A stretch of 60,933 nucleotides of DNA, taken from NCBI GenBank assembly GCA_903830625.1, contig CAIKUK010000024.1, forward strand, positions 1 through 60,933, read 5' to 3'. A program made the translations under genes and the position numbers. Below are positions 2,677 to 49,866 of the stretch, piece after piece (the stretch's first letter is position 1; the number at the start of each line of letters is the position of its first letter). Origin of the DNA: Candidatus Yanofskybacteria bacterium (lineage in GTDB: Bacteria > Patescibacteriota > Minisyncoccia > 2-02-FULL-40-12 > GWA2-44-9). A model generated the notes under the pieces. The model saw nothing but the letters and a program-made list of their open reading frames with translations, had not been told where the DNA came from and did no database searches.

Positions 2677-4987
2677 TTAATTTTGGTTCCTCGCTAGTAG
2701 AATTTTCAATTGCCTTCGGCTCGGCAGAATTTGAAAATTCACTACCCGACTTACGCTTTCCGTATTTCTTCGCAGGTTTAACTGGTTTTTCTTTCCAAGT
2801 TTTCAGGGCCTCTTGAAGTTCGGCCTCGCTTTCGGGCTTCTTGCTCATCAAGAAGGTGCAGTCGGGCCAGCGGGAACAGGCGTAGAATAATTTGCCTCGG
2901 CCGCGTGATTTCTTTTCCACCACATCACCGACGACCCATCCTTCGTCAAGACTTCGGAGGGCAAGGCAATTCGGACATTTAAATCCGGTTTTGTTGAAGA
3001 TCTTGGAGATGCCTTTACAAGTTGGATAATCCACACAGCCAAGGAAGTAACCGAAGCGTCCGCGCTTCACTTCCATGGGTTTTGAACAGATGGGGCAAAG
3101 TTCGCCTTTGGTTTGTTCCTGAAGCTGTTTGATTTTGGCCGCTTCTTCGGGCAGGGGGAGCGAGACTTTGCTGCCTGGTTCTGGGCAGGCCAGGAATTTG
3201 CCCATCCGCCCGAATTTAACCAGCATCATTTTACCGCAGTGCGGGCAGGGGGTGGTGGATTCCACAATTAATTTATCAACGCTTTCCGTTTTTTCTTTGA
3301 GATTTTTGCTGAATGGTGTGTAGAATTCTTCCACCACCGGGACCCATTTGATTTTGCCTTCGGCGATTTCGTCGAATTCTTCTTCAATGTGAGAAGTGAA
3401 ATTGATATCAATGACTTCGGGAAAATTCTCCACGAGCATGTCATTGACCGAGAAACCGATTTCGGTGGGTTTATATTTCTTGTCTTCTTTTTCTACGTAG
3501 CCTCGGTCCTGAATGGTGGTCAAAGTGGGCGCGTAAGTGGATGGCCGGCCGACACCGGCGGCTTCCAAAGTCTTGATAAGCGAAGCATCAGTATATCGCG
3601 GAGGCGGTTCGGTGAAATGCTGGTCTTTGGACAGGTCAATGAGATTCAATAATTCTTTTTCGGATAATTCCGGAAGCTGGCCTTCTTCATAGGAATCTTC
3701 TTCGCTTTTTTCATCTTCTTCTTTAGTTTCGGTGTAAGCGCGGATGAAACCATCAAATTTAATGGCTTGGCCGTTGGCGCGGAATGTGTATTTTGGACCG
3801 GCGGATATGTCAGCGGCGGTTTGATCAAGAACGGCGACCTGCATTTGGCAAGCAATGGTCCGTTTCCAGATTAAATCGTAAAGCCGTAGCTGGCCGGAAT
3901 CCAAATCCTTATCGAGACTCTCGGGCAGACGGGATAGATCGGTCGGTCGGACGGCTTCATGGGCTTCCTGAGCGCCTTTGGATTTATTAATAAATGAACG
4001 GGGTGCATCAAGGCAATACTTGGCGCCGAATTCTTTTTTGATGACTTCTTGAGCTTGGGCCAAAGCGATTTCAGAAATATTCAAACTGTCGGTACGCATG
4101 TAGGTAATCATGCCGGTCTCGTATAATCGCTGGGCCAAGGTCATGGTCTGTTTGGCGGAGAAGCCGAGTTTCTTGGCCGCTTCCTGTTGGAGAGTGGAAG
4201 TGGTGAACGGTGCCGGCGGGGTGCGGCGGACTTCTTTTTTGACGACTTCAATGACTTTATATTCGGCGCCGGCCAAAGCGTCGGTTATTTTTTGGGCTTC
4301 GGCCGAGTTTTTGACGCCCAAGCGGTCAATTGATTCTTCGCCGACTTTAACCAGCCGGGCTTTAAAAGTTTTATCTTCGTCTTTTTTGGAGAGTGAAGCT
4401 TCGACGGACCAGTATTCTTGAGGCCTGAATTTTTGGATTTCTCGTTCGCGTTCCACCACTAAACGCACAGCCACGCTTTGAACGCGCCCGGCGGAAAGGC
4501 CGGAACGGATTTTCTTCCAAAGAAACGGCGATAATTTGTAACCGACGAGACGGTCGATAATCCGCCGAGCCTGCTGGGCATCAACCAGATTCTGGTCAAT
4601 CTCCCGCGGATGGGCGATAGCTTTTTCAATAGCCTGTTTGGTGATTTCATGAAAGACCACACGGTCTGTTTTCTTGGTGTTTGATTTTTTATCCAGACCA
4701 AGGGCGTGGGCTAAATGCCAAGCAATGGCTTCGCCTTCGCGGTCAGGGTCGGTGGCTAGGATTACCGTATCGGCTTTGGCGGTGTCGCTTTTGAGTTCGC
4801 TGACAATCTTCTTAGCTTTGGCGGGGATGATATATTCAGGTTTGAAATCGTGAGCAATATCAATACCAATGCCTTTTTTAGGCAGATCACGGATATGGCC
4901 GAAAGATGATTTAACAATAAAATCGCCGCCGAGGAAGCGGGAGATAGTTTTAGCTTTGGTTGGACTCTCAACGATTATTAATTGCAT
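2660..4987 (-). CDS. topA: DNA topoisomerase I (type IA); true start ATG 4987
   Basis: LIIVESPTKAKTI, ATDPDREGEAIAW, SAGRVQS, LITYMRTDS-like catalytic motif, AQEAHEAVRPT, GRPSTYA, C-terminal Zn ribbons. Confidence 0.97.
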   Translation of the reverse strand: MQLIIVESPTKAKTISRFLGGDFIVKSSFGHIRDLPKKGIGIDIAHDFKPEYIIPAKAKKIVSELKSDTAKADTVILATDPDREGEAIAWHLAHALGLDKKSNTKKTDRVVFHEITKQAIEKAIAHPREIDQNLVDAQQARRIIDRLVGYKLSPFLWKKIRSGLSAGRVQSVAVRLVVEREREIQKFRPQEYWSVEASLSKKDEDKTFKARLVKVGEESIDRLGVKNSAEAQKITDALAGAEYKVIEVVKKEVRRTPPAPFTTSTLQQEAAKKLGFSAKQTMTLAQRLYETGMITYMRTDSLNISEIALAQAQEVIKKEFGAKYCLDAPRSFINKSKGAQEAHEAVRPTDLSRLPESLDKDLDSGQLRLYDLIWKRTIACQMQVAVLDQTAADISAGPKYTFRANGQAIKFDGFIRAYTETKEEDEKSEEDSYEEGQLPELSEKELLNLIDLSKDQHFTEPPPRYTDASLIKTLEAAGVGRPSTYAPTLTTIQDRGYVEKEDKKYKPTEIGFSVNDMLVENFPEVIDINFTSHIEEEFDEIAEGKIKWVPVVEEFYTPFSKNLKEKTESVDKLIVESTTPCPHCGKMMLVKFGRMGKFLACPEPGSKVSLPLPEEAAKIKQLQEQTKGELCPICSKPMEVKRGRFGYFLGCVDYPTCKGISKIFNKTGFKCPNCLALRSLDEGWVVGDVVEKKSRGRGKLFYACSRWPDCTFLMSKKPESEAELQEALKTWKEKPVKPAKKYGKRKSGSEFSNSAEPKAIENSTSEEPKLNEPAI
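2935..2962 (-). repeat. REP-like palindrome inserted in frame in topA
   Basis: GCCCTCCGAAGTCTTGACGAAGGATGGG resembles intergenic CCCTCCGAAGCCTTGGCGAAGGAGGG at 40074-40099, with a compensatory change in the inner stem. Confidence 0.6.
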
Positions 4988-10353: not shown

Positions 10354-10359
10354 GACGTC

Positions 10360-10770
10360 AGTATGCAGACAATCGCTCGTCTTTAAGACGGGAGGAAAGT
10401 CCGGGCACTATCCTAACAGGTCGGAATCCTTCGACAGGCTCAGGATAAAACGGTAGTGGGTAATTCCCATCTGCGGCAACGCAAGAGGTGCGAACAGAAA
10501 CGTCCGTGCTCGAAAGAGCAGGAAGGCTAAACCCAGACCATTGATTTATCAAAGGTCACAGCTTAGCTCCGATCGGGGATACAAGATCGGAGGTGAAACG
10601 GCCAAATCCTTACTGGAGTGCAAGATCAAATCCCGACTTGTCGGGATAAAAGTAGATCGCTTGAGCTCGCGAGTAATCGCGAGCCTAGATAAATGATTGT
10701 CCATCCCGCCTTGGCGGGACACACAGAACCCGCCTTGGCGGGACACACAGAACCCGGCTTATCGCATACT
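10360..10770 (+). ncRNA. rnpB: RNase P RNA
   Basis: P1 AGTATGC/GCATACT; CR-I GAGGAAAGTCCGGGC; GGTGAAACGG; TAGATAAATGATTGTC; CR-V ACAGAACCCGGCTTA. Confidence 0.95.
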
Positions 10771-10771
10771 A

Positions 10772-10805
10772 AATCAAAATCCCGACAGCTGTCGGGATTT
10801 TGATT
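10772..10805. terminator. Intrinsic terminator after rnpB
   Basis: 15-bp stem AATCAAAATCCCGAC/GTCGGGATTTTGATT. Confidence 0.8.
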
Positions 10806-14464: not shown

Positions 14465-14473
14465 GGAATTTTA

Positions 14474-14548
14474 TCCCGTTAGAAGTAAGACGCCATTTTA
14501 TGGCATCTGCCGGCCATGCCTTCTAGGCAGGCCGGACTTCTAACGGGA
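14474..14548. mobile_element. MITE-like element, CCCGTTAGA family (copy b)
   Basis: 13-bp inverted repeat TCCCGTTAGAAGT / ACTTCTAACGGGA with a GC-rich palindromic core. Confidence 0.7.
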
Positions 14549-14592
14549 CAAGTCCACAGAGGTTCGGAGCTCTTTAGGTGTACAATTAAGCC

Positions 14593-17172
14593 ATGCTCCC
14601 GACCATAAGAATGCCTTTTGGGGCAATGTTTGACGTTAAGCCGGTAGATGATTCTGGTTCGCTTGATGTTCAAAAAATAGACGCCGTTCAGCCGGTGGTT
14701 AATCTAGCTTCTTTCAGGCCTAAAAAATCCAGACATAAAAATGCTAGCGCTTCGATACCGACATTGAATTCAAGGCCGGCCGAAATATCGGGACAAGTTT
14801 CAAATCAAGTGTCGGAATCGCAGGTGCTTCCGCCGGCGATAGGTTTGCCGTCTCATCAGGACATCAAAGAACAATTTGACGAGCTGATGGGCCATGATCT
14901 TGATTTGGGTGTGGAATTGACCAAGATGGGCTTGTCGGTGCAGACGAATACTAATCAAAGCAAGCCTCGCTACCGGGTTATTAAAAACCGTTCCAGATTT
15001 GAATCTAGTCAATATGCGCCCCTTATTTCGGCGATTTATCATTCCGCCAATACGATTGCCAGAGAAGAATATGCCCCACCTGAATCAGTCGATAATTTTA
15101 AAGTTGAAACCGGGTCTATGCCGGCTTTTGTGCCTGGCGAGCTCTCTCAATCGGCCGAGACCGATGTGCGGTCGCTTTTTTACACTCCTTCAGTCGAACT
15201 TATCGCTAAAAAGAAATCTTTTTCGAGGACAACCAGAATTAGAAAATGGCCTAAACTTAAAATTTCTAGAACTTATGTTTTAATTGCCATCGCTTCTGTT
15301 GTGGCTTTGGCGCTTATCATTGTCTACGGTCTTCGTGTTAAAAAACAAGTTATTCAGGATAGTGCGGCGGCGGTAACCAATCTTCAAACTGCCCAGGATA
15401 GTTTGAAAACTTTGGATTTCAAAAATGCTTCCCAAGATTTCTTTTCGGCTTATGCCAATTTTTCTAAAGCGGGGAATAGTCTGAACGTATTCGGTGCGGC
15501 TCTAACCAGTATTATTGCTGATTTGCCCGGCGGTGGAACGCTTAAATCGGCCAAAAATCTTTTACAAGTCGGCCAATTGCTTTCGGCTGCCGGCACGTCC
15601 ATGACGACGGCTTTAAACGCGGTCGCCAAAACCGGTGCTGTCTCCGATCCGACCAATCCTCAAGTGCCAATCGGCCCGATTGTTACGGCTTTAAAAAAAG
15701 CCCTGCTCGCTTCCCAACAACAAGTCGCCCAAGCCAGCGCGCTCATGGCGGATATCGACAGCAGTGTCATTCCGGCCGACAAGCAAGCCGGTTTTGCCGA
15801 TTTGAAATCAAAAATGCCGGAGTTTGAAGCCGGCGTGAACATGAGCGCCGATTACGCCAAGTTTTTTGAAAACCTGATTAACAGCGGCAAGGCAAAATAT
15901 TTGGTGATGTTCCAGAACGGTTCCGAACTTCGGCCGACGGGCGGATTCCCCGGCACGTATGGCGTGGTTTCATTCACAAACGGCAAAATGGATAATCTTT
16001 TCGTAGATGACGTTTACAATCTGGATGGCCAGATTAAAGAAAATATTATTCCGCCACTTCAGATGCAGCACATTACGCCTACTTGGGGGATGCGTGATGC
16101 CAACTGGTATATTGATTTTCCGACCTCGGCCCGCAATATTGAAACCTTCTATAAAAAAGAATCGGGCCAAAGCGTAGATGGCGTCATTTTCATCAACCCC
16201 GAAATGATTACCAAGATTCTTGATATCGTCGGGCCGATTGAAATGCCTCAATATAAACTGACACTGACCGCCAATAATGTCTTGACCACTATTCAGAGTG
16301 AAGTAGAATACGGCGCCAATCGGACCCAGCCGAAGCAAATCTTAAAAGATTTCGCGCCATTGCTTTTGGCAAAAATGTATAATGCCGGCTCCGATAAATG
16401 GCTGACGATTTTTAACACCCTTATTTTAAGCATGAATCAGCGGGACGTACTGATGAGTTTTGATAATTTATCACTCGAAAGTTTTGTGACTGACAAAGGT
16501 TTTGGCGGGCAGGTCCATCAAGGCGATGCCGATTATTTAATGGCGACAATCACGAACATTAAAGGTTCCAAGACCGATGCCGTGACCGATACTTCACTGG
16601 CGGTGGATACGGTGTTTGATAACACCACGGCGGTCCACACGCTGACCATTACTCGCCAACACAATGGCGGGGGAGCGAAATATGGATTTTATAATAAACA
16701 AAATCCGGCCTATGTCCGCGTGCTGGTGCCGGATGGCGCGGAACTTGTTTCCGTTGACGGCAACGATAAACCCAATTTTGCCCCATTAGTAAATTACTCT
16801 AATTCTAATTTTGTCCGTGATGATAATCTGGTTAAATTTGAAACCAGTGGCAAGACCGACAATACCACTGGTGTCATTACTTATCGTGAAGCGGGCAAGA
16901 CCGAATTTGGTTTTTGGCTTATCACCGATCCTGGCAAAACAAAAACTGTGACGGTTAAATATCGTGTGTCTAAAGCTCTGACCGACAAATCATATTCACT
17001 CTATGTTCAGAAACAACCCGCCTTGAAAATAAAGAGTTTCAGTTTCTCAATGCAAAAGCCGGACGGTCTCACGCCCACCGAATCGTATCCGCTTCTGACG
17101 TCCAAAGATTCCGGCTACAGCTACTCCGGTCCGTTGGAAAACGACCTGACAGTCAAAGTGAATTTCCGCTAG
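14593..17172 (+). CDS. DUF4012-domain membrane-anchored protein
   Basis: Single TM; YLVMFQNGSELRPTGGF, RDANWYIDFPTSA, VDGVIFI motifs as recalled for DUF4012; in a glycan cluster. Confidence 0.8.
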   Translation: MLPTIRMPFGAMFDVKPVDDSGSLDVQKIDAVQPVVNLASFRPKKSRHKNASASIPTLNSRPAEISGQVSNQVSESQVLPPAIGLPSHQDIKEQFDELMGHDLDLGVELTKMGLSVQTNTNQSKPRYRVIKNRSRFESSQYAPLISAIYHSANTIAREEYAPPESVDNFKVETGSMPAFVPGELSQSAETDVRSLFYTPSVELIAKKKSFSRTTRIRKWPKLKISRTYVLIAIASVVALALIIVYGLRVKKQVIQDSAAAVTNLQTAQDSLKTLDFKNASQDFFSAYANFSKAGNSLNVFGAALTSIIADLPGGGTLKSAKNLLQVGQLLSAAGTSMTTALNAVAKTGAVSDPTNPQVPIGPIVTALKKALLASQQQVAQASALMADIDSSVIPADKQAGFADLKSKMPEFEAGVNMSADYAKFFENLINSGKAKYLVMFQNGSELRPTGGFPGTYGVVSFTNGKMDNLFVDDVYNLDGQIKENIIPPLQMQHITPTWGMRDANWYIDFPTSARNIETFYKKESGQSVDGVIFINPEMITKILDIVGPIEMPQYKLTLTANNVLTTIQSEVEYGANRTQPKQILKDFAPLLLAKMYNAGSDKWLTIFNTLILSMNQRDVLMSFDNLSLESFVTDKGFGGQVHQGDADYLMATITNIKGSKTDAVTDTSLAVDTVFDNTTAVHTLTITRQHNGGGAKYGFYNKQNPAYVRVLVPDGAELVSVDGNDKPNFAPLVNYSNSNFVRDDNLVKFETSGKTDNTTGVITYREAGKTEFGFWLITDPGKTKTVTVKYRVSKALTDKSYSLYVQKQPALKIKSFSFSMQKPDGLTPTESYPLLTSKDSGYSYSGPLENDLTVKVNFR

Positions 17173-17374
17173 GGTTCTCAGTTTTTCTCAGGCTTCCGCT
17201 CGGACTATTTCTAGTCGCTTCTCTTAATTTCTCTGGCCGTCCGAAGCAACTCCTGTCGGGCCATGCGGCCTTCGGCCGTTCCCGACATCCTCGGGCCGGC
17301 ACCCAGAGAAATAACATCGAAGCTCCTGAAATAGTAGCCGATTGTGCAGATTGAGAAAAACTGAGAATCCTAGC
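17168..17374. repeat. About 207-bp long-hairpin element overlapping a stop codon
   Basis: 23-bp inverted repeat GCTAGGGTTCTCAGTTTTTCTCA / TGAGAAAAACTGAGAATCCTAGC (1 mismatch) plus nested internal stems. Confidence 0.7.
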
Positions 17375-19745: not shown

Positions 19746-21539
19746 ATGAATATCAGGAATTTCGTCATCATCGCCCATATTGACCATGGAAAATCGACCC
19801 TCGCGGATCGATTTTTAGAATTGACCGGCACCGTGGAAAAAAGAAAAATGCATGAACAGTATTTGGATACGATGGAACTGGAGCAGGAACGGGGTATTAC
19901 CATCAAGCTTCAGCCGGTCCGGATGAATTACAACTACCAAGGCGAGGATTACATGCTCAATTTGATTGATACGCCGGGGCATGTAGATTTTACTTATGAA
20001 GTTTCCCGTTCTCTGGCGGCGGTGGAAGGAGCGATTCTTTTGGTGGATGCTTCCAAAGGTATTCAAGCCCAGACATTGGCTAATTTACACTTGGCTCAAC
20101 AGCAAAAATTGGTCATCATTCCGGTTTTAAATAAAATTGACTTACCCAATGCCCGCACGGCGCAAGTCAGGGAAGAGCTGTCTTATTTGCTGGGCGTGGA
20201 ACCGGAAGAGATTTTAGAAATATCGGCCAAAAGCGGCCAGGGTGTGGAAGAAGTTCTTAAAAAAGTAATTGCCAAAGTTCCGGCACCGGCCATGACCACT
20301 GATGGCGCCGAATTAAAAGCTTTAATCTTTGATTCCACGTTTGATACTTACAAAGGCGTCATTGCTTATGTCCGTGTTTTTAGTGGTTCATTTAAACAAA
20401 CCATGCCAATCGTGGCCTATGCTTCGCGGGCCAAAGCCGATGTTCTAGAAATTGGCTATTTTTCTCCTGGTTTGGTTGAGTCTAAGATTTTAGGTCCGGG
20501 CGAGATTGGGTACATTGCCACTGGCTTGAAAGATCCGGGTCTGATCCGTGTCGGCGATACTATTACCGGTCCGGCGATGCTGGAAAAACATTCTTTTAAG
20601 GCCTTGGCTGGATATAAAGAGCCTCGACCGATGGTCTTTGCCAGTTTTTTCCCGGTGGAAGGCGAAGCTTATGATTTACTCAAAGATGCGCTATCAAAGC
20701 TCAAACTGACCGACGCCTCGCTAATTTATGAACCAGAATCTTCCGCCGGCTTGGGCCGGGGATTTAGAGTTGGATTCTTGGGCATGCTTCACGTGGAAAT
20801 CATATCCGAGCGGTTACATCGGGAGTTCAATTTAAATCTGATCATCTCCACGCCTTCGGTGGAGTATTTGGTTGATTTAAAAAACGGCGAACAAGTTTCT
20901 ATCCGTTCGGCGGCGATGTTGCCCGATCCGTCCCGAGTGGAAGCCGTTTTGGAACCGATCGTGGCTTTGGAAATCTTAACCCCGATTACGTATTTGGGCG
21001 GAGTGATGGAATTAATCGCCACCTACCGCAATACTTATCAGGCGACGGAATATATCGGTAAAGAAACCGCGCTTCTTAAATATGACATGCCGTTATCCGA
21101 AATCGTGACCGATTTTTATGACCGACTGAAAAGCGTTTCTTCCGGTTATGCTTCCATGAGCTATGAACCGAAAGGCGTAACTAGAAATGATTTAATCCGA
21201 TTAGATGTGCTTATTGCCGGCGATTTGGTGGAACCATTTTCGCGCATCGTGCCGCGCGAAAAAGCCTATCTGGAAGGCCGGGCCATGGTCACGAAATTAA
21301 AAGAAGTTGTGCCGCCCCAAATGTTTGAAGTTTCCATTCAGGCCGCTATTGGAGGCAAGGTCATTGCCGCCGAATCTATCCGGGCCAAGAGAAAAGACGT
21401 CACTCAGCATATGTACGGCGGAGACATTACGCGGCGTCAAAAACTCTGGAAAAAACAAAAAGCAGGGAAAGAACGCATGAAAGAGACTGGCCGGGTAAAT
21501 CTTCCCCAAGAAGTTTTCTTAAAGATGCTAAAACGCTGA
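19746..21539 (+). CDS. lepA: Elongation factor 4 (LepA)
   Basis: IRNFVIIAHIDHGKSTLADR, RGITIK, DTPGHVDF, GFLGMLH, YGGDITRRQKL. Confidence 0.98.
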   Translation: MNIRNFVIIAHIDHGKSTLADRFLELTGTVEKRKMHEQYLDTMELEQERGITIKLQPVRMNYNYQGEDYMLNLIDTPGHVDFTYEVSRSLAAVEGAILLVDASKGIQAQTLANLHLAQQQKLVIIPVLNKIDLPNARTAQVREELSYLLGVEPEEILEISAKSGQGVEEVLKKVIAKVPAPAMTTDGAELKALIFDSTFDTYKGVIAYVRVFSGSFKQTMPIVAYASRAKADVLEIGYFSPGLVESKILGPGEIGYIATGLKDPGLIRVGDTITGPAMLEKHSFKALAGYKEPRPMVFASFFPVEGEAYDLLKDALSKLKLTDASLIYEPESSAGLGRGFRVGFLGMLHVEIISERLHREFNLNLIISTPSVEYLVDLKNGEQVSIRSAAMLPDPSRVEAVLEPIVALEILTPITYLGGVMELIATYRNTYQATEYIGKETALLKYDMPLSEIVTDFYDRLKSVSSGYASMSYEPKGVTRNDLIRLDVLIAGDLVEPFSRIVPREKAYLEGRAMVTKLKEVVPPQMFEVSIQAAIGGKVIAAESIRAKRKDVTQHMYGGDITRRQKLWKKQKAGKERMKETGRVNLPQEVFLKMLKR

Positions 21540-21803
21540 CCCTACCTCAGTAATACTTCCTAGCCGCGTTCTTTGCTATGTTATCCGATATGCTAGGCAC
21601 GACGAGGAAGAATACTGGTAGTATTCTGACGAGGAGTAACAAAGCAGATCGGGAACATAGCGAGAACCCTTCGGGATACGGCAAATTTTATCTATGTCTG
21701 CGTCGCTCGTCTTCGACATACTTCCGGTATGTCTTATCCTTGCTTCTTGACCTAGAAAAAATTTGCCAGTATCGCGGCATGAAAGTATTATTGAGGTAGG
21801 GTC
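21538..21803. repeat. 266-bp inverted-repeat/hairpin element at the lepA stop
   Basis: 31-bp imperfect inverted repeat (27/31) 21538-21568 / 21773-21803; internal hairpins GAATAC-TGGTA-GTATTC and GACATAC-TTCCG-GTATGTC. Confidence 0.65.
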
Positions 21804-22330: not shown

Positions 22331-22364
22331 TCCGCCGTAGCTCGCTTCGGCGAGCGAAGGCGGA
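22331..22364. repeat. REP-like palindrome overlapping the tRNA-Gly 5' end
   Basis: TCCGCCGTAGCTCGC-TTCG-GCGAGCGAAGGCGGA; same architecture as 40074-40099. Confidence 0.55.
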
Positions 22365-22430
22365 ATTCGTATAGTGGTAATACGCGACCTTCCCAAGGTT
22401 GAGACACGAGTCCGATTCTCGTATTCCGCT
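22360..22430 (+). tRNA. tRNA-Gly(CCC), no encoded CCA
   Basis: Acceptor GCGGAAT/ATTCCGC; anticodon arm CGACC-TTCCCAA-GGTTG; T-loop TCCGATT. Confidence 0.9.
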
Positions 22431-22433
22431 CAA

Positions 22434-22887: not shown

Positions 22888-23337
22888 ATGTCGAATAGAA
22901 AACCAAGACCAAATTGTCCCATTTGTGGTAAAGAGCCATATCGTGCTTATTACAAATATTGTAGTAATAAATGTCAGATGGAGTATCAGTATCAGTGTTA
23001 TATAAAAAAATGGAAAAGTGGAGAGATAAACGGATTGCAGGGCATAGGGATTGTCTCGTCGCACGTTAAAAGATACTTGCGAAGAAAATTTGATAACAAA
23101 TGTTGTTTATGTGGCTGGGCAGAAGTTAATAAAAAAATCGGATATTCTCCACTAGTGGCGGACCACATTGATGGCAACTGGAGAAATAATGTCGAAAGTA
23201 ATCTTCGTTTAATTTGCCCAAATTGTGATTCACTAACTTCCACATATGCAGGGTTAAACAGGGGAAATGGTAGAAAAAATAGGGTTTTGAGTAAAAGAGC
23301 TAAAGAGGGTAGGTTGTTAGCGAATATGCCGGAGTAG
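22888..23337 (+). CDS. HNH endonuclease with N-terminal Zn finger
   Basis: CPIC...YCSNKC; CCLCG; DHIDGNWRNNVESNLRLICPNCDS; stop codon lies inside tRNA-Thr. Confidence 0.85.
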   Translation: MSNRKPRPNCPICGKEPYRAYYKYCSNKCQMEYQYQCYIKKWKSGEINGLQGIGIVSSHVKRYLRRKFDNKCCLCGWAEVNKKIGYSPLVADHIDGNWRNNVESNLRLICPNCDSLTSTYAGLNRGNGRKNRVLSKRAKEGRLLANMPE

Positions 23338-23403
23338 CTCAGATGGTAGAGCAGCCGATTCGTAATCGGCAGGCCGTGAGTTCAACTCTCACCTCCGGCT
23401 CCA
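23328..23403 (+). tRNA. tRNA-Thr(CGT), CCA encoded
   Basis: GCCGGAG/CTCCGGC acceptor; GCCGA-TTCGTAA-TCGGC; T-loop TTCAACT. Confidence 0.95.
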
Positions 23404-24871: not shown

Positions 24872-25776
24872 AAAAAGCGTTCAAAAGAATTTTCCGAAGC
24901 GGCTGGATTAATTTTAAGCGCAACAGCTATCTAAGTTTTGGCACCACCGGCATTATGGCCCTGGTGTTGCTTTTATTTTCAGGCCTGATGGTTTTAAATT
25001 ATGTTTCCGGGCAGATTGTGACCGGTCTGGAAGATAAAGTGGACATCAGTGTCTATTTTAAAAATAACGCTTCGGAAGACCAGGTCATGGCGGTGGAGCA
25101 GGATTTGGAAGCTCAATCGGACGTGGCAAGTGTCACCTATATCTCCAAAGATAAAGCGCTGGCCGATTTCAAAACCAACCATGCCGGCGACGCTTTAATC
25201 CAGCAATCGCTGGCCGAACTGGCCGATAATCCGTTGCAGTCGTCACTCAATGTCAAAGCCAAAGATTCCACCCAGTACGCGTCAATCGTGACCTTCATCG
25301 AAGGTAACAAGCTCCGGTCCGTGATTGATAAGATAAATTTCTATGAAAATGAAGCGGTCATCAACCGCGTGGAGAGCATTTCTAATGGCGTGGGCAATTA
25401 CGGATTGGGGATTACTCTGGTTTTGGCCTTTATCGCTGTCCTAGTAACTTTTAACACTATCCGCCTGACCATTTACAACCAAAAGAATGAAATCGAAATT
25501 ATGCGTCTGGTCGGCGGTTCCAACTGGCACGTCAAAGCCCCATTCCTGGTTGAAGGAGGATTGTACGGCATTTTCGCGGCCACAATCGCCATTGTTATTT
25601 TTTATCCGACGCTCTGGTTCGTCTCATCCAAAGTGGGCGTTCTTATTCCCGGTCTTAGTCTCCTTGGCTACTTCGGCGCTAATTTCTTCCAGTTCGTGCC
25701 GTTAATCTTTGCCCTAGGTATTTCTCTGGGGGTTATCTCCAGTTTCATCGCCATCAGAAGATTTCTAAAAGTTTAA
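24868..25776 (+). CDS. ftsX: Cell division permease FtsX
   Basis: 4-TM layout, NTIRLTIY..KNEIEIMRLVGGS, PFLVEG. Confidence 0.93.
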   Translation: MKKAFKRIFRSGWINFKRNSYLSFGTTGIMALVLLLFSGLMVLNYVSGQIVTGLEDKVDISVYFKNNASEDQVMAVEQDLEAQSDVASVTYISKDKALADFKTNHAGDALIQQSLAELADNPLQSSLNVKAKDSTQYASIVTFIEGNKLRSVIDKINFYENEAVINRVESISNGVGNYGLGITLVLAFIAVLVTFNTIRLTIYNQKNEIEIMRLVGGSNWHVKAPFLVEGGLYGIFAATIAIVIFYPTLWFVSSKVGVLIPGLSLLGYFGANFFQFVPLIFALGISLGVISSFIAIRRFLKV

Positions 25777-25938
25777 TTTTGGCGATCTGCTTTGTTGCGG
25801 GTTGCAGCCATTTTTCTCTTATGGCTGGCTACGCACAGCCAAGAAAAATGGCCTGCGGTACTCATTCGCCGTATCCCTAATACGGCTCATTCCGTTCCTC
25901 GCCCGCGCCTCGCATCTCATCCAAAATTAAACTTTTAG
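25765..25938. repeat. 174-bp inverted-repeat/hairpin element at the ftsX stop
   Basis: Perfect 18-bp inverted repeat CTAAAAGTTTAATTTTGG / CCAAAATTAAACTTTTAG; internal stems GCCATTTTTCT/AGAAAAATGGC and GCCGTAT/ATACGGC. Confidence 0.7.
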
Positions 25939-25998: not shown

Positions 25999-26069
25999 TG
26001 CCGGGTCTGCTAATGGTAGGCATCGTGACTCTGAATCACGCAATCTTGGTCCGAATCCAAGCCCGGCAG
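25999..26069 (+). tRNA. tRNA-Gln(CTG), no encoded CCA
   Basis: TGCCGGG/CCCGGCA acceptor; CGTGA-CTCTGAA-TCACG; T-loop TCCGAAT. Confidence 0.9.
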
Positions 26070-26072
26070 CAT

Positions 26073-38292: not shown

Positions 38293-38302
38293 GGATAGTT
38301 TG

Positions 38303-38420
38303 AGGCTCCGAGCCTGCCATGAGTTGGGTTGTACGATCATTATCCCTCCTTGATTGGGCATAACCCTATTCAATAAAAGAGCATAATCTTTTATTATGAA
38401 TCATGGCAGGCTCGGAGCCT
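38303..38420. repeat. 118-bp inverted-repeat element
   Basis: Perfect 20-bp inverted repeat AGGCTCCGAGCCTGCCATGA / TCATGGCAGGCTCGGAGCCT. Confidence 0.7.
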
Positions 38421-38431
38421 TAACTCACTTG

Positions 38432-38503: not shown

Positions 38504-39530
38504 GAACGATTTTGGAAATAAATGGATACTTGTCGGATCTCTAGTAGTAGTTTTTACTATTACTTTAATTTTTAGTTACGGGCCGGGATATGGAGGCGGT
38601 CTCTATTCTTTTTTAAGTAGTAACGCTGGTATTTATCCTGAAATGTCACCTAGTGACATAGTGACACCAATGGTGACACTAAAAAAAGTGGTGACATCCA
38701 GGAGTGTCACCAATGTCACCACTGTGTCACCAGTTGTGTCATCATCAATATATAGTAATTACGGCGCTTCTATATATTCTTCATATTCCCCGTCACCAAT
38801 TACAAGTCTACATCCTTCCGTGTCACCTCGTATTTCAACCATGACACCAACTCCCAGAGTGTCACCAACTGTGTCACCAGCGACACCGATACCAGTGGTG
38901 ACACCTACGCCTTCACCAGAGACTTTAGTAGAAACAACATCACCTACTGTTATTCCGGAACCGGAAACTCCTACATCGACTCCAACCCCGACTCCAGTTG
39001 TTATTAGTGTTGGAGATATAGTTATTAATGAAATTGCCTGGATGGGTACTGGCAATACATCAAAATTGTCAAATGATGAATGGATGGAACTGTATAACAC
39101 TACTGACCAAACCATTGATTTGACTGGCTGGACTCTAAATTCTCTCACTGGCACTTCTCCTGACCCCCAAATTAACCTAGCTCATTCTATCCAGCCATTC
39201 GGGTTCTACATTCTTGAAAGAACCGATGATAATACTATTCCTGGCATTATAGCTAATCAAATATACACCGGTTCGCTTATAGATTCCGGTGAAAATCTAG
39301 AACTTAAGGATTCCTCTGGCCTTTTGATTGATTCTGTTCACAGCGAAGGCTCATGGTTTGGAGGAGATAAAGCCAGTAGGTCCTCAATGGAGCGTATAGA
39401 TCCTTATAAACCAGGCAATGATTTGACTAATTGGGGGACGAACAATGGTATAAATAAGAATGGTCTTAATGCTGAGGGGGGTCTGATTAATGGTACTCCC
39501 GGCCAGCCCAACAGTATTAGGGTCCCCTAA
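38502..39530 (+). CDS. Lamin-tail-domain (LTD) surface protein with Ser/Thr/Pro/Val-rich linker
   Basis: N-terminal TM; IVINEIAWMGT, DEWMELYN, IDLTGWTL, GTPGQPNS. Confidence 0.88.
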   Translation: MNDFGNKWILVGSLVVVFTITLIFSYGPGYGGGLYSFLSSNAGIYPEMSPSDIVTPMVTLKKVVTSRSVTNVTTVSPVVSSSIYSNYGASIYSSYSPSPITSLHPSVSPRISTMTPTPRVSPTVSPATPIPVVTPTPSPETLVETTSPTVIPEPETPTSTPTPTPVVISVGDIVINEIAWMGTGNTSKLSNDEWMELYNTTDQTIDLTGWTLNSLTGTSPDPQINLAHSIQPFGFYILERTDDNTIPGIIANQIYTGSLIDSGENLELKDSSGLLIDSVHSEGSWFGGDKASRSSMERIDPYKPGNDLTNWGTNNGINKNGLNAEGGLINGTPGQPNSIRVP

Positions 39531-45430: not shown

Positions 45431-45474
45431 TAAGAAACCTAAAACTCCCCTCGAGGGGAGTTTTAGGTTTCTTA
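45431..45474. terminator. Bidirectional terminator
   Basis: Perfect 44-bp palindrome TAAGAAACCTAAAACTCCCC-TCGA-GGGGAGTTTTAGGTTTCTTA between convergent genes. Confidence 0.85.
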
Positions 45475-46671
45475 AAGCAGTTTTTCTATTTGTTTAATTG
45501 TAGTTTCAATATTGAAGGCAAAGAGAACGCGTTGGTGAGCCTGGATGCCCATCTCTTGGGCTCGGGAATTGTTATCAATAAGTACGATGACCTTTTCTGA
45601 TATTTGGCCCGGATTTCTCGGTTCGACGATGTATCCACTTACGCCGTCCTCTATTATTTCGGGGATTGCTCCAACTCGGGTGGCAATGACCGGTAATTTG
45701 GCGGCCATGGCCTCCAAAATGGCCCAAGGGAAGCCTTCTTTTACCGAAGGCAGGACAAACAGGTCAAAAGCTTTTAGGTATCTGGCCGCTTGCTCTCTAT
45801 GGCCAGTAAGGATTACTTTTTCGTCTAACCCCTTGCTCTGGATTAGTTTTTTGAGGCCAGTTCGGCCTTCTCCATCTCCGATAATGCACCATATGACATC
45901 TTCCCGGCCCATTATTTGGGCGGCTCCAATTAGATACTCTAAACCTTTGGCTGGGTAAAAATTAGCAATAGTGCCGACAATTTTTTTCGACAAGGGGAGA
46001 CCTAGTTTGGAGCGAGCTTCATCTTTTTCTAGAAAATTAATTTTATAAGGGTCAAGGCCGTTATGAATTAAAACAAGACTCTGGCGGGGTTTAATGCCAA
46101 TTTCTTTGGCTTGGTCTAGATCACGAGCATTATTAACAATGATGACATCTTTCCAAGGAGCGCTTATCTTTTCGAGTGTTTGCCAGAGTCTCTTTTTCCA
46201 CACTGGCCAAGGATCATTGAACGTCCAACCACCAATACGATAAACTACTTTCGGTCGCGGGTGGCAAAATTTTGACGCTAGTGCTCCAATAAAACCAGCC
46301 TTAGAGCTGGCTAAGAAAAGAGTATCAGGTTTGAATTTTTGGATACATTTTTTAATTTGATCGATGGCTCTAAGATCGGAAAATGGACTAACATTCCGTT
46401 TAAGCGACGAAAGGGTGAGAGCAGGGATTCCGAGGTCGATTAAGGCATGAGTAAATGAACCATCGCCATCAGTTCCGACGGCCACGGTAATATCGTAAGC
46501 ATCTTTCTCTAGTTGTTTGATAAATTGAAGAATAAACTGCTGGGCGCCACCCAGTTCCGATTGGGTAATAACAAATAGAACCCGCTTTTTGGGAACTGGA
46601 GGTGTGCCACCAAAGGCATTGACCCCCACACCTAACGGGTAGTTACTGTTTTTATTTCCATGTTCAGGCAT
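45472..46671 (-). CDS. GT4 glycosyltransferase; N-terminus supplied by an inserted element
   Basis: VLFVITQSELGGAQ, GTIANFYPAKG, KEGFPWAILEAMAAKLPVIAT. Confidence 0.9.
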   Translation of the reverse strand: MPEHGNKNSNYPLGVGVNAFGGTPPVPKKRVLFVITQSELGGAQQFILQFIKQLEKDAYDITVAVGTDGDGSFTHALIDLGIPALTLSSLKRNVSPFSDLRAIDQIKKCIQKFKPDTLFLASSKAGFIGALASKFCHPRPKVVYRIGGWTFNDPWPVWKKRLWQTLEKISAPWKDVIIVNNARDLDQAKEIGIKPRQSLVLIHNGLDPYKINFLEKDEARSKLGLPLSKKIVGTIANFYPAKGLEYLIGAAQIMGREDVIWCIIGDGEGRTGLKKLIQSKGLDEKVILTGHREQAARYLKAFDLFVLPSVKEGFPWAILEAMAAKLPVIATRVGAIPEIIEDGVSGYIVEPRNPGQISEKVIVLIDNNSRAQEMGIQAHQRVLFAFNIETTIKQIEKLL

Positions 46672-46755
46672 ATATTATTTTTATTAAATATAATTCCAAG
46701 CAGTTCTTATCTAGACGACAGCTACTAAGGGATATCTACCCGTTAGGTGTGGGGG
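46623..46755. mobile_element. 133-bp TIR element with 4-bp target duplication (copy e)
   Basis: 20-bp perfect TIR CCCCCACACCTAACGGGTAG / CTACCCGTTAGGTGTGGGGG; TTGA on both flanks; excision restores an in-frame ATG at 46772. Confidence 0.85.
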
Positions 46756-46796
46756 TTGATAGGAGCGTCCATTTATGTTAAAATATTAGCACATTA

Positions 46797-47090
46797 CCCC
46801 CACACTCACAAGGTTTTATGCATTTCGTCTATATCATAAAAAGTAAGGTAAATAAGGACTTATATATGGGGTGTACGGGTGATTTAAAGAAGAGATTTAC
46901 TGAACATAATTCCAATCAGGTTCCATCAACGAAGAACAAAGGACCGTACGAATTAATATACTACGAAGCGTATAAATCAGAGAAGGATGCTTTCAAGCGA
47001 GAGAAAAATCTTAAGCTAAGAGCTAATGCTCTCACCGGGCTGAAGAGAAGACTTTTGGAAAGTCTTAACTAAACCTTGTGAGTGTGGGGG
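46797..47090 (+). mobile_element. 294-bp TIR cassette carrying a GIY-YIG nuclease (copy f)
   Basis: 20-bp perfect TIR CCCCCACACTCACAAGGTTT / AAACCTTGTGAGTGTGGGGG; TA on both flanks; gene fills the whole interior. Confidence 0.85.
46818..47072 (+). CDS. Small GIY-YIG nuclease (UPF0213-like)
   Basis: HFVYII...LYMGCTGDLKKRFTEHN, YELIYYEAY, AFKREKNLK. Confidence 0.9.
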   Translation: MHFVYIIKSKVNKDLYMGCTGDLKKRFTEHNSNQVPSTKNKGPYELIYYEAYKSEKDAFKREKNLKLRANALTGLKRRLLESLN

Positions 47091-47093
47091 TAT

Positions 47094-48260
47094 ATGCAGG
47101 AAAAATCAACAGAAATCCTCGGCCGGCTAAAGCACGGCCAGGAGACCATTCCGAGAAGAATTTTGATACTATCAACTGCCTACCTGCCTCAAGTGGGCGG
47201 TTCGGAACTGGCTATAAAAAACATTACCGACCGTTTGCCTGAATTTGATTTTGACCTGATTACCTCTAAATTTTCACCGGACATCCCCTCGTTTGAAAAG
47301 ATTGGCAATGTTAATGTTTGCCGTGTCGGCAATGCTTTGAGTCGGTTTTCTTTTTTGTTACCTAAGAACTTTTTGCCAATTGCTGTATTTTTAAAGGCGC
47401 GGCAATTAATATCTCAACATGGTGTCTATGGTTTTATTCATGCTTATCAAGCTTCGCAGGCTGCTGGCGGTGGCTGGTTACTTAAATTATTTTATCCACA
47501 AATCCCGTTTTTAGTTACAGTGCAGGAAGGAAAGAATTTAATAAACCAGCCGTGGCTTACTAAAACTTTTAGAGGTTTGATATTCAATAAAGCCAACCGG
47601 GCGACTGCAATCAGTAATTATCTGGCGGAATATATTGTCTCTCAAAACAAAAATTTGCCCGTGACGATAATCCCCAATGGTGTAGATTTGCAAAAATTCG
47701 CGATGTCCAGCCAAGAAATTTTAAATAATCGGACAATTATTACCGTCTCGCGATTAGTTGAAAAAAATGGGGTCAAAGATCTGGTTGAAGCTATGGCGAT
47801 TGTTGTAAAAAAGATTAACGATGCCAAATTGTTTATAGTGGGCGATGGTTATCAAAAAGAAGAATTGATCAAAAGAACAAAAACCCTGGAACTGGAAAGC
47901 AATGTTGAGTTTTTAGGTGAAATTTCAAATGAAGAACTGCCAAAGTATTTGATCAAAGCCACAGTGTTTGTCCGGCCATCCTTGTCGGAAGGGTTAGGGA
48001 TTGCCTTTTTGGAAGCGATGGCTTCAGGAATAGCCATAATTGGCACGCCAGTCGGGGGGATACCTGATTTTTTGAAAGACAGAGAAACGGGTTTGTTTTG
48101 CGAGCCTGAAAATCCACAAGATATTGCTAATAAAATAATAGAAATTATAGAAAATAAAGATCTAAGACAGAAACTAGTTAAAAATGCCAGGAAGTTGGTT
48201 GAAGAAAAATACGATTGGAATAACATTGCGCAAGAATTTAAGAAAATTTATGGCCAATAA
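47094..48260 (+). CDS. GT4 glycosyltransferase
   Basis: YLPQVGGSE, TVSRLVEKNG, SEGLGIAFLEAMASG. Confidence 0.92.
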   Translation: MQEKSTEILGRLKHGQETIPRRILILSTAYLPQVGGSELAIKNITDRLPEFDFDLITSKFSPDIPSFEKIGNVNVCRVGNALSRFSFLLPKNFLPIAVFLKARQLISQHGVYGFIHAYQASQAAGGGWLLKLFYPQIPFLVTVQEGKNLINQPWLTKTFRGLIFNKANRATAISNYLAEYIVSQNKNLPVTIIPNGVDLQKFAMSSQEILNNRTIITVSRLVEKNGVKDLVEAMAIVVKKINDAKLFIVGDGYQKEELIKRTKTLELESNVEFLGEISNEELPKYLIKATVFVRPSLSEGLGIAFLEAMASGIAIIGTPVGGIPDFLKDRETGLFCEPENPQDIANKIIEIIENKDLRQKLVKNARKLVEEKYDWNNIAQEFKKIYGQ

Positions 48261-49416
48261 AAGTATTATTATCGCCACCGGTATTTTTTCACCCGACATC
48301 GGCGGACCGGCTTCGTATGCTCGGACTATTGCCAGTCGGCTGGCGACATCTAGAAAAGTGACAGTGGTAACTTATTCTTCTGTTTGGAATTCGCTCGCCG
48401 ATTCGAAGTTGCCTTTTAGAGTGGTGAGAATCTGGGCCAAATGGCCGAAAGGGATTAAACACGGCATATATTTTATAAGAATGTTGTTTGAAGCGAGAAA
48501 GGGTAAAGTTGTTTTTGCTCTGAACGCCGTGAGTGCGGGGATACCGGCTCGTTTTGCAGCCCGGGCGTTCAAAAGAAAATTTATTGTCAAAATTGTCGGC
48601 GATTCAGCGTGGGAACGGGCGATTAGCAATAATAAAACTTCTCTACTACTCAATGATTTTCAGAAAACAAAACGTTCGGGTTGGGCGCGAATATTGCATG
48701 CGTTGCAATGCTCAGTTTGCAAAGGTGCTTACACGATTATTGTTCCGTCGGAGTATCTAAGCAAAATTGTTGAGGGGTGGGGCATTTCCAAAGAAAAGAT
48801 CAGGGTTGTTTATAATGGTTCCGATTTTGAAGCTTCTCCGTTATCCAAAGAAGAAGCCAAGAAAAAACTGGGTATTTCGGGAAATGTTTTATTTACTTGG
48901 GGTCGGCTCGTACCGTGGAAAGGTTTTCGGATGTTAGTTAAGATTATGCCCAAGCTTGCCGAGGTAAACCAGTTCTTTAAATTGGTAATCGTCGGTTCTG
49001 GGCCGGATAAGTCTATTCTTGAGGCCATGATTAAAAACATGAGACTGGAGCGAAAAGTAATTCTGGCGGGCCGAAAGAATCTGAAAGAAGTGGCCGAGTA
49101 TCTGGCCGCGGCCGATATCGCCATTTTGAATAGCGGCTATGAGGGATTTTCACATCAAATCATTGAGGCGATGATTGCGGGTGTGCCCTTGATTACGACG
49201 AACGCTGGCGGGAATAAAGAAATTATTCATCAGGGCCAGAATGGGATTATGGTTAAATACAACGACGAGTTTAATTTAATCGAAGTCATTAGGGCGCTCT
49301 GGAACAATCCGGAAATGCAGGAACATTTTATTGAAGAAGGCAAAAAAACCGCCGCCTATTTCAGTGTTGAAAAAATGTTTGATGAAACAATAGCCTTATT
49401 AATTTCGAATTTATAA
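48250..49416 (+). CDS. GT4 glycosyltransferase
   Basis: PDIGGPASY, GRLVPWKG, YEGFSHQIIEAM.AGVP. Confidence 0.9.
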   Translation: MANKSIIIATGIFSPDIGGPASYARTIASRLATSRKVTVVTYSSVWNSLADSKLPFRVVRIWAKWPKGIKHGIYFIRMLFEARKGKVVFALNAVSAGIPARFAARAFKRKFIVKIVGDSAWERAISNNKTSLLLNDFQKTKRSGWARILHALQCSVCKGAYTIIVPSEYLSKIVEGWGISKEKIRVVYNGSDFEASPLSKEEAKKKLGISGNVLFTWGRLVPWKGFRMLVKIMPKLAEVNQFFKLVIVGSGPDKSILEAMIKNMRLERKVILAGRKNLKEVAEYLAAADIAILNSGYEGFSHQIIEAMIAGVPLITTNAGGNKEIIHQGQNGIMVKYNDEFNLIEVIRALWNNPEMQEHFIEEGKKTAAYFSVEKMFDETIALLISNL

Positions 49417-49861
49417 TTATAAATTTTGAATAAAATTAGAATGACCGAAGATAAAAAACGAATTTATGATTTAGAAGAGAGAACGGCCATATTTGGGCAG
49501 AATATTATTAGTTTATGTAAGAGTGTGAAGGTAAATAATATTTCCAGTCCACTAATTAACCAAATTATTAGATCTGGTACTAGTATTGGGGCCAATTACA
49601 TGGAAGCGAATGCCGCATCTTCAAAGAAAGATTTTATTAACAAGATCTCTATATGCAAGAAAGAAGCCCAAGAGACTAAGCACTGGCTTAGGATGCTAGA
49701 CTTTTATGATAACCAGCTTACATTGATGCGAGATTTGAAACAGGAGTGTGGAGAGTTAGTTTTAATTTTTGGTAGAATTCTTAGTTCATCAAGATCGGAA
49801 AAGTTTGAAAATTGAAAATTCAGTTATTTATTCAAAATTCTAAATTCATCATTCAAAATTA
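49407..49861. repeat. Inverted heptamer-repeat arrays flanking a four-helix-bundle gene
   Basis: Upstream GAATTTA-TAATTAT-AAATTTT-GAATAAA; downstream heptamers including a 13-bp inverted match AATTTTGAATAAA (49422-49434) / TTTATTCAAAATT (49827-49839). Confidence 0.6.
49441..49815 (+). CDS. Four-helix-bundle protein (23S rRNA-IVS-like family)
   Basis: DLEERT, QIIRSGTSIGANYMEA, KKDFINKISICKKEAQETKHWL, EL..IF. Confidence 0.9.
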   Translation: MTEDKKRIYDLEERTAIFGQNIISLCKSVKVNNISSPLINQIIRSGTSIGANYMEANAASSKKDFINKISICKKEAQETKHWLRMLDFYDNQLTLMRDLKQECGELVLIFGRILSSSRSEKFEN

Positions 49862-49866
49862 ACACT

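Follow-up and report, generated by a model that had tools for sequence, protein, structure and literature searches.

A putative mobile cassette of a minimal GIY-YIG nuclease and its inverted repeats at a glycosyltransferase promoter in Candidatus Yanofskybacteria

The stretch of DNA considered here (hereafter the window) comprises 60,933 nt of Candidatus Yanofskybacteria bacterium (assembly GCA_903830625.1, contig CAIKUK010000024.1, forward strand) and carries, at the head of a glycan operon, a small GIY-YIG nuclease gene tightly enclosed by a pair of inverted repeats. Comparison with related loci reveals that this cassette was inserted downstream of the -10 box and ahead of the start codon at a glycosyltransferase (GT) promoter that is compact and nearly leaderless. 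We lean towards regarding it as a mobile cassette of about 0.3 kb from a family of Ssn-like GIY-YIG nucleases, moving by a mechanism that we infer. An architecture of this kind has a published precedent that the preliminary description of the window did not include, namely the hairpin-flanked Ssn nucleases (PMC11893778). What is new here is the comparative evidence that Ssn-like cassettes of nuclease plus repeats move.

The cassette, its empty sites and a second insertion

The preliminary description, made from the letters of the window, had drawn the cassette as 20-bp terminal inverted repeats (TIRs) exactly filled by a lone GIY-YIG gene. These repeats are indeed present at 46797-46816 and 47071-47090, and the full arms are perfect over 22 nt (Table 1). 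The proposed fit of the gene within them is equally exact: its ATG at 46818 lies 1 nt past the left arm, its stop codon TAA (47070-47072) overlaps the right arm, and the ATG of the first rightward GT at 47094 follows 1 nt past the 22-nt arm, or 3 nt past the 20-bp version, with the G-run of the right arm 4-8 nt 5' of it. The AAGG of the left arm could act as a ribosome-binding site for the nuclease open reading frame (ORF). We set the boundary of the core by family statistics, since arm positions 1-20 are complementary across the family and complementarity falls below chance at positions -2 and -3 outside the element. Even with 3 mismatches allowed, the arm sequence recurs nowhere else in the window (0 expected), and the outer motif CCCCCACAC occurs within the 61 kb only in the four arms of the cassette and of a neighbouring element (element e), against 0.19 expected. 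Folded in silico as single-stranded DNA (ssDNA), the cassette closes through its arms (-47.9 kcal/mol, z = -6.3). Rfam yields no match at the gathering threshold in the whole window and no real one at E<=1 within 46500-47200, where the sole matches are insignificant miRNA-hairpin ones on element e.

Table 1. Features of the divergent GT promoter region (window coordinates; L084 is a cassette-free homologous locus)
Feature	Position	Strand	Description
Leftward GT4 glycosyltransferase	45472..46671	-	81% identical to L084 orthologue
TTGA left copy	46619..46622	.	4-bp target duplication of element e
Element e	46623..46755	.	133 bp, ORF-less; arms 46622-46645 / 46733-46756
TTGA right copy	46756..46759	.	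also first four bases of the -35 hexamer
Rightward promoter	46756..46784	+	TTGATA, 17-nt spacer, TG-extended TAAAAT
Ancestral start codon, leftward GT	46770..46772	-	out of frame now; frame reconstructed from sequence
Segment missing from empty site	46795..47093	+	299 bp = TA + core + TAT, between CACAT and ATG
Inverted-repeat arms	46795-46816, 47071-47092	+	left and right; 22 nt, 100% complementary
Left arm	46795..46816	+	TACCCCCACACTCACAAGGTTT
Cassette core	46797..47090	+	294 bp, CCCCCACAC...GTGTGGGGG at ends
GIY-YIG nuclease gene	46818..47072	+	84 aa, single-domain
Right arm	47071..47092	+	AAACCTTGTGAGTGTGGGGGTA; overlaps ORF stop
First GT4 glycosyltransferase, rightward operon	47094..48260	+	now 3' of cassette; 84% identical to L084 orthologue
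Empty-site duplex sequence			TTAGCACATATGCAGG

The sequence TGTTAAAAT at 46776-46784, read in the preliminary description as a native extended -10 element, forms together with TTGATA at 46756-46761 a sigma-70-like site matching at 10/12 positions and carrying the TG extension. Both the letters and the native character are borne out, as cassette-free relatives retain the identical promoter sequence and the same spacer, TTATGTTAAAATATTAGCACAT. Judging from the layout, the cassette is too tight to hold a promoter of its own and probably depends on the host promoter for its transcription, as the leading gene of the operon.

The relatives in question were collected by a search with the downstream GT protein, of which the closest homologues were taken; L-numbers designate the homologous loci compared with the window. 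Five loci from three relatives (L084, GT 84% identical; L085, 71%; L086-L088, 71%, Yanofskybacteria) contain the same divergent GT4 pair with start codons 22 bp apart and the spacer in common. Between the two genes there is neither a GIY-YIG gene, nor a CCCCACAC motif, nor element e. Because the GT pair of the relatives is separated by only 22 bp in the absence of the cassette, the cassette must be an insertion. The empty site of L084 reads TTAGCACAT|ATGCAGG, and its flanks are the same as those of the window, being identical over 39 bp on the left and 51 bp on the right as printed. Without the cassette only about 10 nt separate the -10 box from the ATG, and the operon mRNA would be close to leaderless. 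The TA dinucleotides pointed out earlier at both ends of the cassette are present (46795-46796, 47091-47092) but do not represent a target duplication: the CACAT|ATG junction of L084 is not obtainable by removing the element and one TA.

The 22-bp spacer itself (46773-46794 in the window, and in L084-L088) contains a rightward TAAAAT and an opposite-strand TAATAT, each about 10 nt from an ATG, which suggests an overlapping promoter pair that would serve near-leaderless mRNAs of both divergent GTs.

Element e is a second, independent insertion with a perfect 4-bp target duplication, as the empty site confirms. It is not present in L082-L088, and L084 carries a single TTGA, within ggcaTTGAtaggagcgtccat, where in the window TTGA flanks the element on both sides. 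Its arms of 24 nt are 96% complementary and separated by 87 nt, and its core ends at 46755, 41 bp left of 46797 across the same divergent promoter, precisely the distance first described. Element e is a relative of the cassette: the two have the same terminal motif, and the central part of the GIY-YIG ORF can be aligned with the interior of element e at a score of 20, where 1000 shuffles averaged 9.9 and never exceeded 17. Because of this alignment, element e looks like a decayed, internally deleted cassette. The insertion hit codon 5/6 of the leftward GT and added 137 bp, so that the ancestral start codon is now out of frame; the present ORF begins at an ATG inside element e (46669-46671). 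L082-L088, L090 and L093 all retain the CAT with TTATG after it, and the -35 hexamer was preserved by the TTGA duplication. The locus thereby illustrates tolerance to insertion at two kinds of site, one between promoter and start codon and the other in a coding region, where the element supplied a new start codon. The arm of element e also contains CTAACGGG.

A family with conserved ends and four-base duplications

The window protein matches Pfam PF01541 (GIY-YIG) over residues 1-71 of 84 with E=1e-16, and the gene is alone of its kind: no second GIY-YIG gene was found in the window. Residues Y5, Y16, G18, R26, H30, R61 and E62 are invariant across 49 homologues. The AlphaFold2 (AF2) model is a confident one, with a predicted local distance difference test score (pLDDT) of 96.6, and shows a GIY-YIG core of three strands and one helix to which a helix of 29 residues is added at the C terminus. 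Its closest structural matches are UPF0213 BH0048, which is the best solved relative, and Slx1 along with the catalytic domains of I-TevI and UvrC. By both Pfam and the AF2 model the protein consists of a catalytic domain plus one helix and has no second or DNA-binding domain. Between the window and its closest relative L081 the gene differs with a synonymous divergence (dS) of 0.69 and a nonsynonymous divergence (dN) of 0.043, giving dN/dS ~0.06. The catalytic residues are intact and under purifying selection, and the nuclease gene and its arms are strongly constrained. An exact-sequence look-up of the window GIY-YIG and GT proteins found no record.

Homologues at 55-93% protein identity are many and mostly patescibacterial; a full HMMER scan returned 410 cluster representatives at E<=1e-10 and 4,792 at E<=1e-3. 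We fetched 80 loci, each from a different genome, which with the window amount to 88 gene copies, 4 of them too near a contig end to test. The preliminary description had expected a mobile element to show TIR flanks and varied insertion contexts among its homologues, as opposed to TIR-less genes found always at one locus. Of the 88 copies, 66 have a flanking inverted repeat with a score of 12 or more (the best of 30 shuffles mostly reached 7-11, with a maximum of 13), and the flanking proteins are unique in 78 of 84 cases. The neighbours are as diverse as atpG/atpD, a reverse transcriptase beside a GT4, an ABC-2 permease, FemAB, transketolase and Rrf2. The family as a whole thus shows the pattern of a mobile element, but the five closest homologues of the window cassette do sit at the same type of locus.

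Nearly all repeat-flanked copies have the outer motif CCCCCACAC in common, and the nine-base ends CCCCCACAC/GTGTGGGGG constitute the family signature. Positions 1-9 are essentially invariant in 47 aligned elements (the search pattern left room for variation at positions 4 and 6 only), and arm positions 10-20 differ among elements (0.6-1.8 bits), with the two arms of any one element matching at 60-100% versus 30-79% after permutation. Exact direct repeats of 4 nt adjoin 24 of 67 elements, where 5.2 are expected and 2000 permutations gave 11 at most; repeats of 2, 3, 5 and 6 nt show no excess. Both classes of element contribute, the ORF-containing ones with 13/46 (2.9 expected) and the ORF-less ones with 11/20 (2.8 expected), and the repeats include the off-consensus CACG, CCAG, TGGA and CATG. 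The preferred insertion site looks TNNA-like. At L073 two copies 2.4 kb apart are 84% identical across exactly the 300 bp from repeat to repeat.

ORF-less pairs with the same ends number 19 in the loci and the window, element e included, and range from 28 to 141 bp: hairpins of 28-38 nt, one of 62 bp, and elements of 100-141 bp. A near-identical ORF-less element of 109 bp in L014 and L077, two metagenome-assembled genomes labelled as different phyla, was not counted as a cross-phylum transfer, the flanks being identical too. The ORF, where present, points the same way as the upstream gene in 40 of 45 cases and often begins or ends a few nucleotides from neighbouring stop or start codons; the co-orientation and the tight wedging fit a dependence on read-through transcription. 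At the level of sequence comparison, the family shows marks of a putatively mobile group: its ends are conserved, duplications of 4 bp occur, and there are derivatives that have lost internal sequence as well as numerous sites of insertion.

Other GIY-YIG subfamilies encountered in the loci have repeats of their own, for example ATCCCGTTAG, and a cognate repeat for each nuclease clade seems to be a general rule. Two ORF-less inverted-repeat elements of the window, at 1074-1180 (107 bp) and 14471-14551 (81 bp), have ends with ATCCCGTTAG / CTAACGGGAT, the motif that in L056 (151-411) brackets an other-subfamily GIY-YIG gene 47.5% identical to the window protein; no gene of that L056 subfamily is found in the window. 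An additional short repeat, CCGCTCAAAAAGCGGAACAACCGTTC, lies 5' of both GIY-YIG copies of L073 (~230-260 and 2690-2720) at differing offsets.

The immediate relatives of the window cassette form a sub-lineage of distinct behaviour. The nearest proteins, in L081-L083 (93, 82 and 79% identity), are all encoded at the homologous divergent GT promoter, and so are two metagenome cassettes with the same arm sequence, L090 (66%) and L093 (93%). The latter came from a metagenome scan with the query CCCCACACTCACAAGGTT, which gave 8 loci; the other six were discarded as isolated chance hits that come with no GIY-YIG gene. The homologous promoter is occupied in all six cases where the cassette has TCACAAGG-type arms (window, L081, L082, L083, L090, L093), and five loci are empty. 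The GTs beside L081-L083 are 42-53% identical to that of the window, as against 71-84% in the cassette-free loci. For the neighbouring GT the comparison of the window with L081 is saturated (proportion of synonymous differences, pS, 0.79; 53% amino-acid identity), and the host gene differs between the window and cassette-free L084 with dS 1.02. Since the cassette itself has dS 0.69, it is therefore younger than the divergence of its hosts. On these divergences, the cassette must have entered the window lineage laterally and at the same conserved sequence, and the presence of the closest cassettes at one promoter beside divergent GTs suggests that they arrived laterally and in a site-specific manner. 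The sub-lineage is thus tied to its site and does not transpose freely. Its arms have remained perfect in L082 and L083 although synonymous sites are saturated, with compensatory changes in both arms: a C>T paired with a G>A at position 1 in L082/L083, and AAGGTT>AAGATT paired with AACCTT>AATCTT in L083.

Likeness to Ssn nucleases, possible mechanism and competing explanations

What could be the nature of such a cassette? The closest known system is the Ssn family, single-domain GIY-YIG proteins of ~94 aa whose genes are flanked by NTS/SRM hairpin repeats (Chenal et al., Nat Commun 2025, PMC11893778). Cleavage by SsnA is restricted to ssDNA and takes place beside the hairpin repeats on either side of its own gene; double-stranded DNA (dsDNA) and RNA are left uncut (PMC11893778). 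Its authors remark that the NTS-ssnA-NTS arrangement resembles an insertion sequence and may be domesticated; the paper mentions neither Patescibacteria nor target-site duplications, and the word 'transposition' occurs in it only in a cited title (PMC11893778). The purpose of the tiny nucleases and their hairpins was left open there, as was the question whether the unit of gene plus repeats is or was mobile. To this question the present family brings evidence of movement, in the form of clean empty sites, the confirmed 4-bp duplication, derivatives that arose by deletion, and a cassette of more recent origin than the host sequence around it.

The resemblance extends to both components. In either case a single-domain GIY-YIG protein of <100 aa (84 aa here, where the Ssn definition allows <150 aa) is encoded between inverted or hairpin repeats that also exist without an ORF, and the perfect 22-nt arms found here, family-wide and with ORF-less copies, fall within the 20-50 nt of hairpin-capable repeats that bracket Ssn genes and recur elsewhere. 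The published definition of the family takes cd10448 as the top CDD assignment, or a blastp match to N. meningitidis SsnA (CAX49033.1) with E<1e-10 at 75% coverage; as a proxy for this, second GIY-YIG copies in L006, L030 and L051 share 37-42% of their residues with the window protein (E 1e-11 to 1e-14). Directly upstream of those in L006 and L030 there is a hairpin matching the published SRM pattern, and that in L051 is flanked by a GTCATTGCGAGC-type repeat. The repeat of the window is another motif, CCCCCACAC; the SRM pattern HGTCWYN0-2YYVSBRHN0-5WNVSBRGN0-2RNCYNB has 0 matches in the whole window, so that the cassette is not SRM-flanked. Moreover, the gene here usually lies inside one long-range repeat and not between two complete hairpins, a form that we find in L014 (1766-1874, 2159-2267) and in the second copy of L024 (2893-3156) as the hairpin-gene-hairpin layout known from ssnA. 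The C-terminal half of the window protein is unlike that of the copies in L006, L030 and L051, and the hosts are mainly Patescibacteria. The two bodies of evidence also differ in kind, the biochemistry of cleavage coming from the Ssn paper and the duplications and empty sites from the sequences compared here. A literature search, itself of incomplete coverage, on GIY-YIG transposases, a link to miniature inverted-repeat transposable elements (MITEs), UPF0213/YhbQ/COG2827 and follow-up of Ssn found no description of this clade, its repeat or its mobility. The clade brings a new and easily searched repeat, CCCCCACAC, and may add a new specificity to a family that has been proposed as a source of ssDNA tools.

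By analogy with SsnA, the reading that we prefer would run as follows. When the DNA becomes single-stranded, during replication, repair or as incoming transforming DNA, the two arms may pair; the 84-residue nuclease would then recognise the invariant foot of the hairpin, that is, its own ends, and nick beside it, and host replication, repair or ligation would complete the movement. Over long times this could lead to insertion at TNNA-like sites with 4-bp duplication and to ORF-less derivatives such as element e, and in the sub-lineage of the window to repeated arrival at one conserved promoter sequence.

Several observations weigh against this account. An exact 4-nt repeat is absent at 43 of the 67 elements, and the window cassette itself has no clean duplication, since ATTA precedes it and TATA follows it, where the empty site has CACATATG. 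With a single ORF copy and a single ORF-less copy in 61 kb there is no sign of recent bursts, and the six sub-lineage members at one site fit homing or recombination equally. The supposed ssDNA specificity and cleavage site are those of relatives with no more than 37-42% identity, whose C-terminal half is not the same (QLKNWRRDWK...NPxWxDL, against NLKLRANAL..LKRR in the window protein). A hydrolytic GIY-YIG nuclease cannot join DNA, and ssDNA routes of the IS200/IS605 kind leave no duplication, so that a simple peel-and-paste model does not account for the 4-bp repeats.

A bolder version of the preferred reading holds that the ~290-bp cassettes are autonomous elements whose sole protein is the 84-residue nuclease, that insertion with 4-bp duplication proceeds through hairpin recognition and host repair or ligation, that they represent a new mechanistic class of transposon, and that Ssn/NTS units are domesticated relatives. 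We consider this version tentative and on balance doubtful; if true, such autonomous elements would be far smaller than known insertion sequences. The preliminary description had offered either a minimal autonomous member of the family or nuclease cargo. The marks of a mobile family support that proposal in part, but a role of the GIY-YIG protein as a transposase would be hypothetical, its hydrolytic nuclease fold having no known strand-transfer chemistry.

Two further explanations are live alternatives and compatible with the preferred model. The first, which we regard as unlikely but worth serious attention, is a free-standing homing endonuclease gene: the nuclease would cut the dsDNA of the empty GT promoter (TTAGCACAT|ATGCAGG), recombinational repair would copy the cassette into it from a filled allele, and the repeat would serve expression or be incidental. 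The sub-lineage fits such a model, with all six TCACAAGG-type cassettes at the homologous divergent GT promoter, beside GTs just 42-53% identical to that of the window in L081-L083, and younger than the divergence of their hosts. Furthermore, the junction letters of the window match L081/L093 donors and not a fresh duplication, and ~20 bp on each side are conserved across filled and empty loci. Outside the sub-lineage the model fares worse, as relatives ending in the same terminal motif, and with duplications of 4 bp, are found in dozens of contexts that have nothing in common, and ORF-less elements occupy unrelated TNNA sites, such as that of element e in a coding region. The protein also has no separate DNA-binding domain of the type that gives known GIY-YIG homing enzymes their specificity, and a scan of viral contigs yielded no relatives.

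The second alternative, to which we assign a slightly lower probability still, places the main function of the repeat at the level of RNA. Once transcribed with the operon, the arms would form a long stem, perhaps cut by RNase III in the way of rRNA intervening sequences, that controls translation of the nuclease and cuts the cassette out of the mRNA, rendering the insertion harmless; the DNA would be moved by another enzyme or by recombination, with the nuclease as cargo. Co-orientation of the ORF with the upstream gene (40/45), the tight wedging between genes and the lack of an own promoter all agree with this, as do the compensatory arm changes even at a fixed locus (L082/L083) and the presence in the same operon of a second repeat-bracketed cassette, whose four-helix-bundle ORF is of the type named after 23S rRNA intervening sequences. 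Arm mismatches, counted to tell strand-specific pairing from plain TIR conservation, are also more often G-T (19) than A-C (7), but this count includes positions beyond the true arm ends and the excess is contaminated by them. The short ORF-less hairpins and element e keep the same ends with no ORF to regulate, and the nine-base foot, invariant across phyla, suggests recognition by a protein over mere pairing. In addition, no Rfam family matches, and RNA binding is absent from the SsnA relatives (PMC11893778).

That the repeat is a fixed palindrome with which the host regulates the glycan operon, as operator or attenuator, and which contains a small gene by chance, can practically be dismissed: its exact position between the -10 box and the first GT start and the arrangement common to L081-L083 would suit it, but the same cassette type occurs in unrelated operons, and the empty sites contradict it, as those relatives whose host genes are most similar keep the 22-bp spacer without any cassette.

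Other mobile systems and further features of the window

How does the cassette compare with better known mobile elements? As in a TIR transposon, the TIRs lie at the exact ends of the unit, and there are empty and filled sites as well as multiple unrelated sites, with the window sub-lineage confined to one site type. A duplication of fixed length is seen in the family (4 bp, 24/67) and as the perfect TTGA of element e, and not at the window cassette (ATTA/TATA). The cassette does not carry a recombinase with strand-transfer chemistry (DDE, HUH, serine or tyrosine), its only ORF being the GIY-YIG hydrolase. Element e and the ORF-less copies of 28-141 bp are reminiscent of bacterial MITEs in their TIRs, short duplication and coding parent; the parent here differs in belonging to no known insertion sequence family and in being itself only ~290 bp long.

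The REP/REPIN-RAYT systems likewise combine a small nuclease or transposase gene with inverted copies of a short GC-rich repeat, which also occurs as ORF-less hairpins and doublets, and their gene is usually single-copy and vertically inherited over long times. RAYTs are, however, HUH-Y1 (IS200-like) transposases with a covalent intermediate, in contrast to the hydrolytic GIY-YIG fold of the window protein, and REPs reach hundreds of copies where the window has four arms in 61 kb. We know of no report that REPINs make 4-bp duplications. IS200/IS605 elements are similarly very small with hairpin-forming ends, and action on ssDNA would be a further likeness if the Ssn analogy holds. They differ in enzyme class, and have subterminal hairpins instead of terminal inverted repeats and no target duplication. 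The GIY-YIG homing endonucleases (I-TevI, Seg proteins) have the same catalytic core and the same pattern of presence and absence at a conserved site (six filled, five empty, with a cassette younger than the host flanks). The window protein, in contrast, has neither their linker nor their DNA-binding domain, the cassette lies outside any phage or intron, and homing genes are not known to have inverted-repeat ends or to make target duplications.

The operon contains another repeat-bracketed gene. A 129-aa four-helix-bundle protein (NCBIfam TIGR02436, E=6e-21) is encoded at 49426-49815 between the second and third GT genes, and an AT-rich inverted repeat with arms of 36 nt, 78% complementary, brackets it at 49399-49862. 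Because the orthologous GTs of L084 are 12 bp apart, this segment is a third insertion in the same operon. Elsewhere in the window four further segments of 124-266 bp (17168-17374, 21538-21803, 25765-25938 and 38300-38423) are bounded by inverted repeats with unrelated ends and 18-31-nt arms that are 87-100% complementary; none of the four has an Rfam match at the gathering threshold. A degenerate cluster of GTGACAC-containing repeats with overlapping inverted repeats lies at 38647-38877.

Among the compared loci, L038 has two further GIY-YIG paralogues, both of other subfamilies, next to tRNA genes. One occupies 3722-3976 with its ORF 3' end overlapping tRNA-Cys (3956-4028), and the other, at 1142-1381 on the minus strand, adjoins tRNA-Ser (1046-1135). 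Housekeeping RNA genes of the window include RNase P RNA (bacterial type A, 108 bits) at 10357-10777 and the tRNA genes Leu (117-203), Gly (22360-22431), Thr (23328-23403) and Gln (25999-26070).

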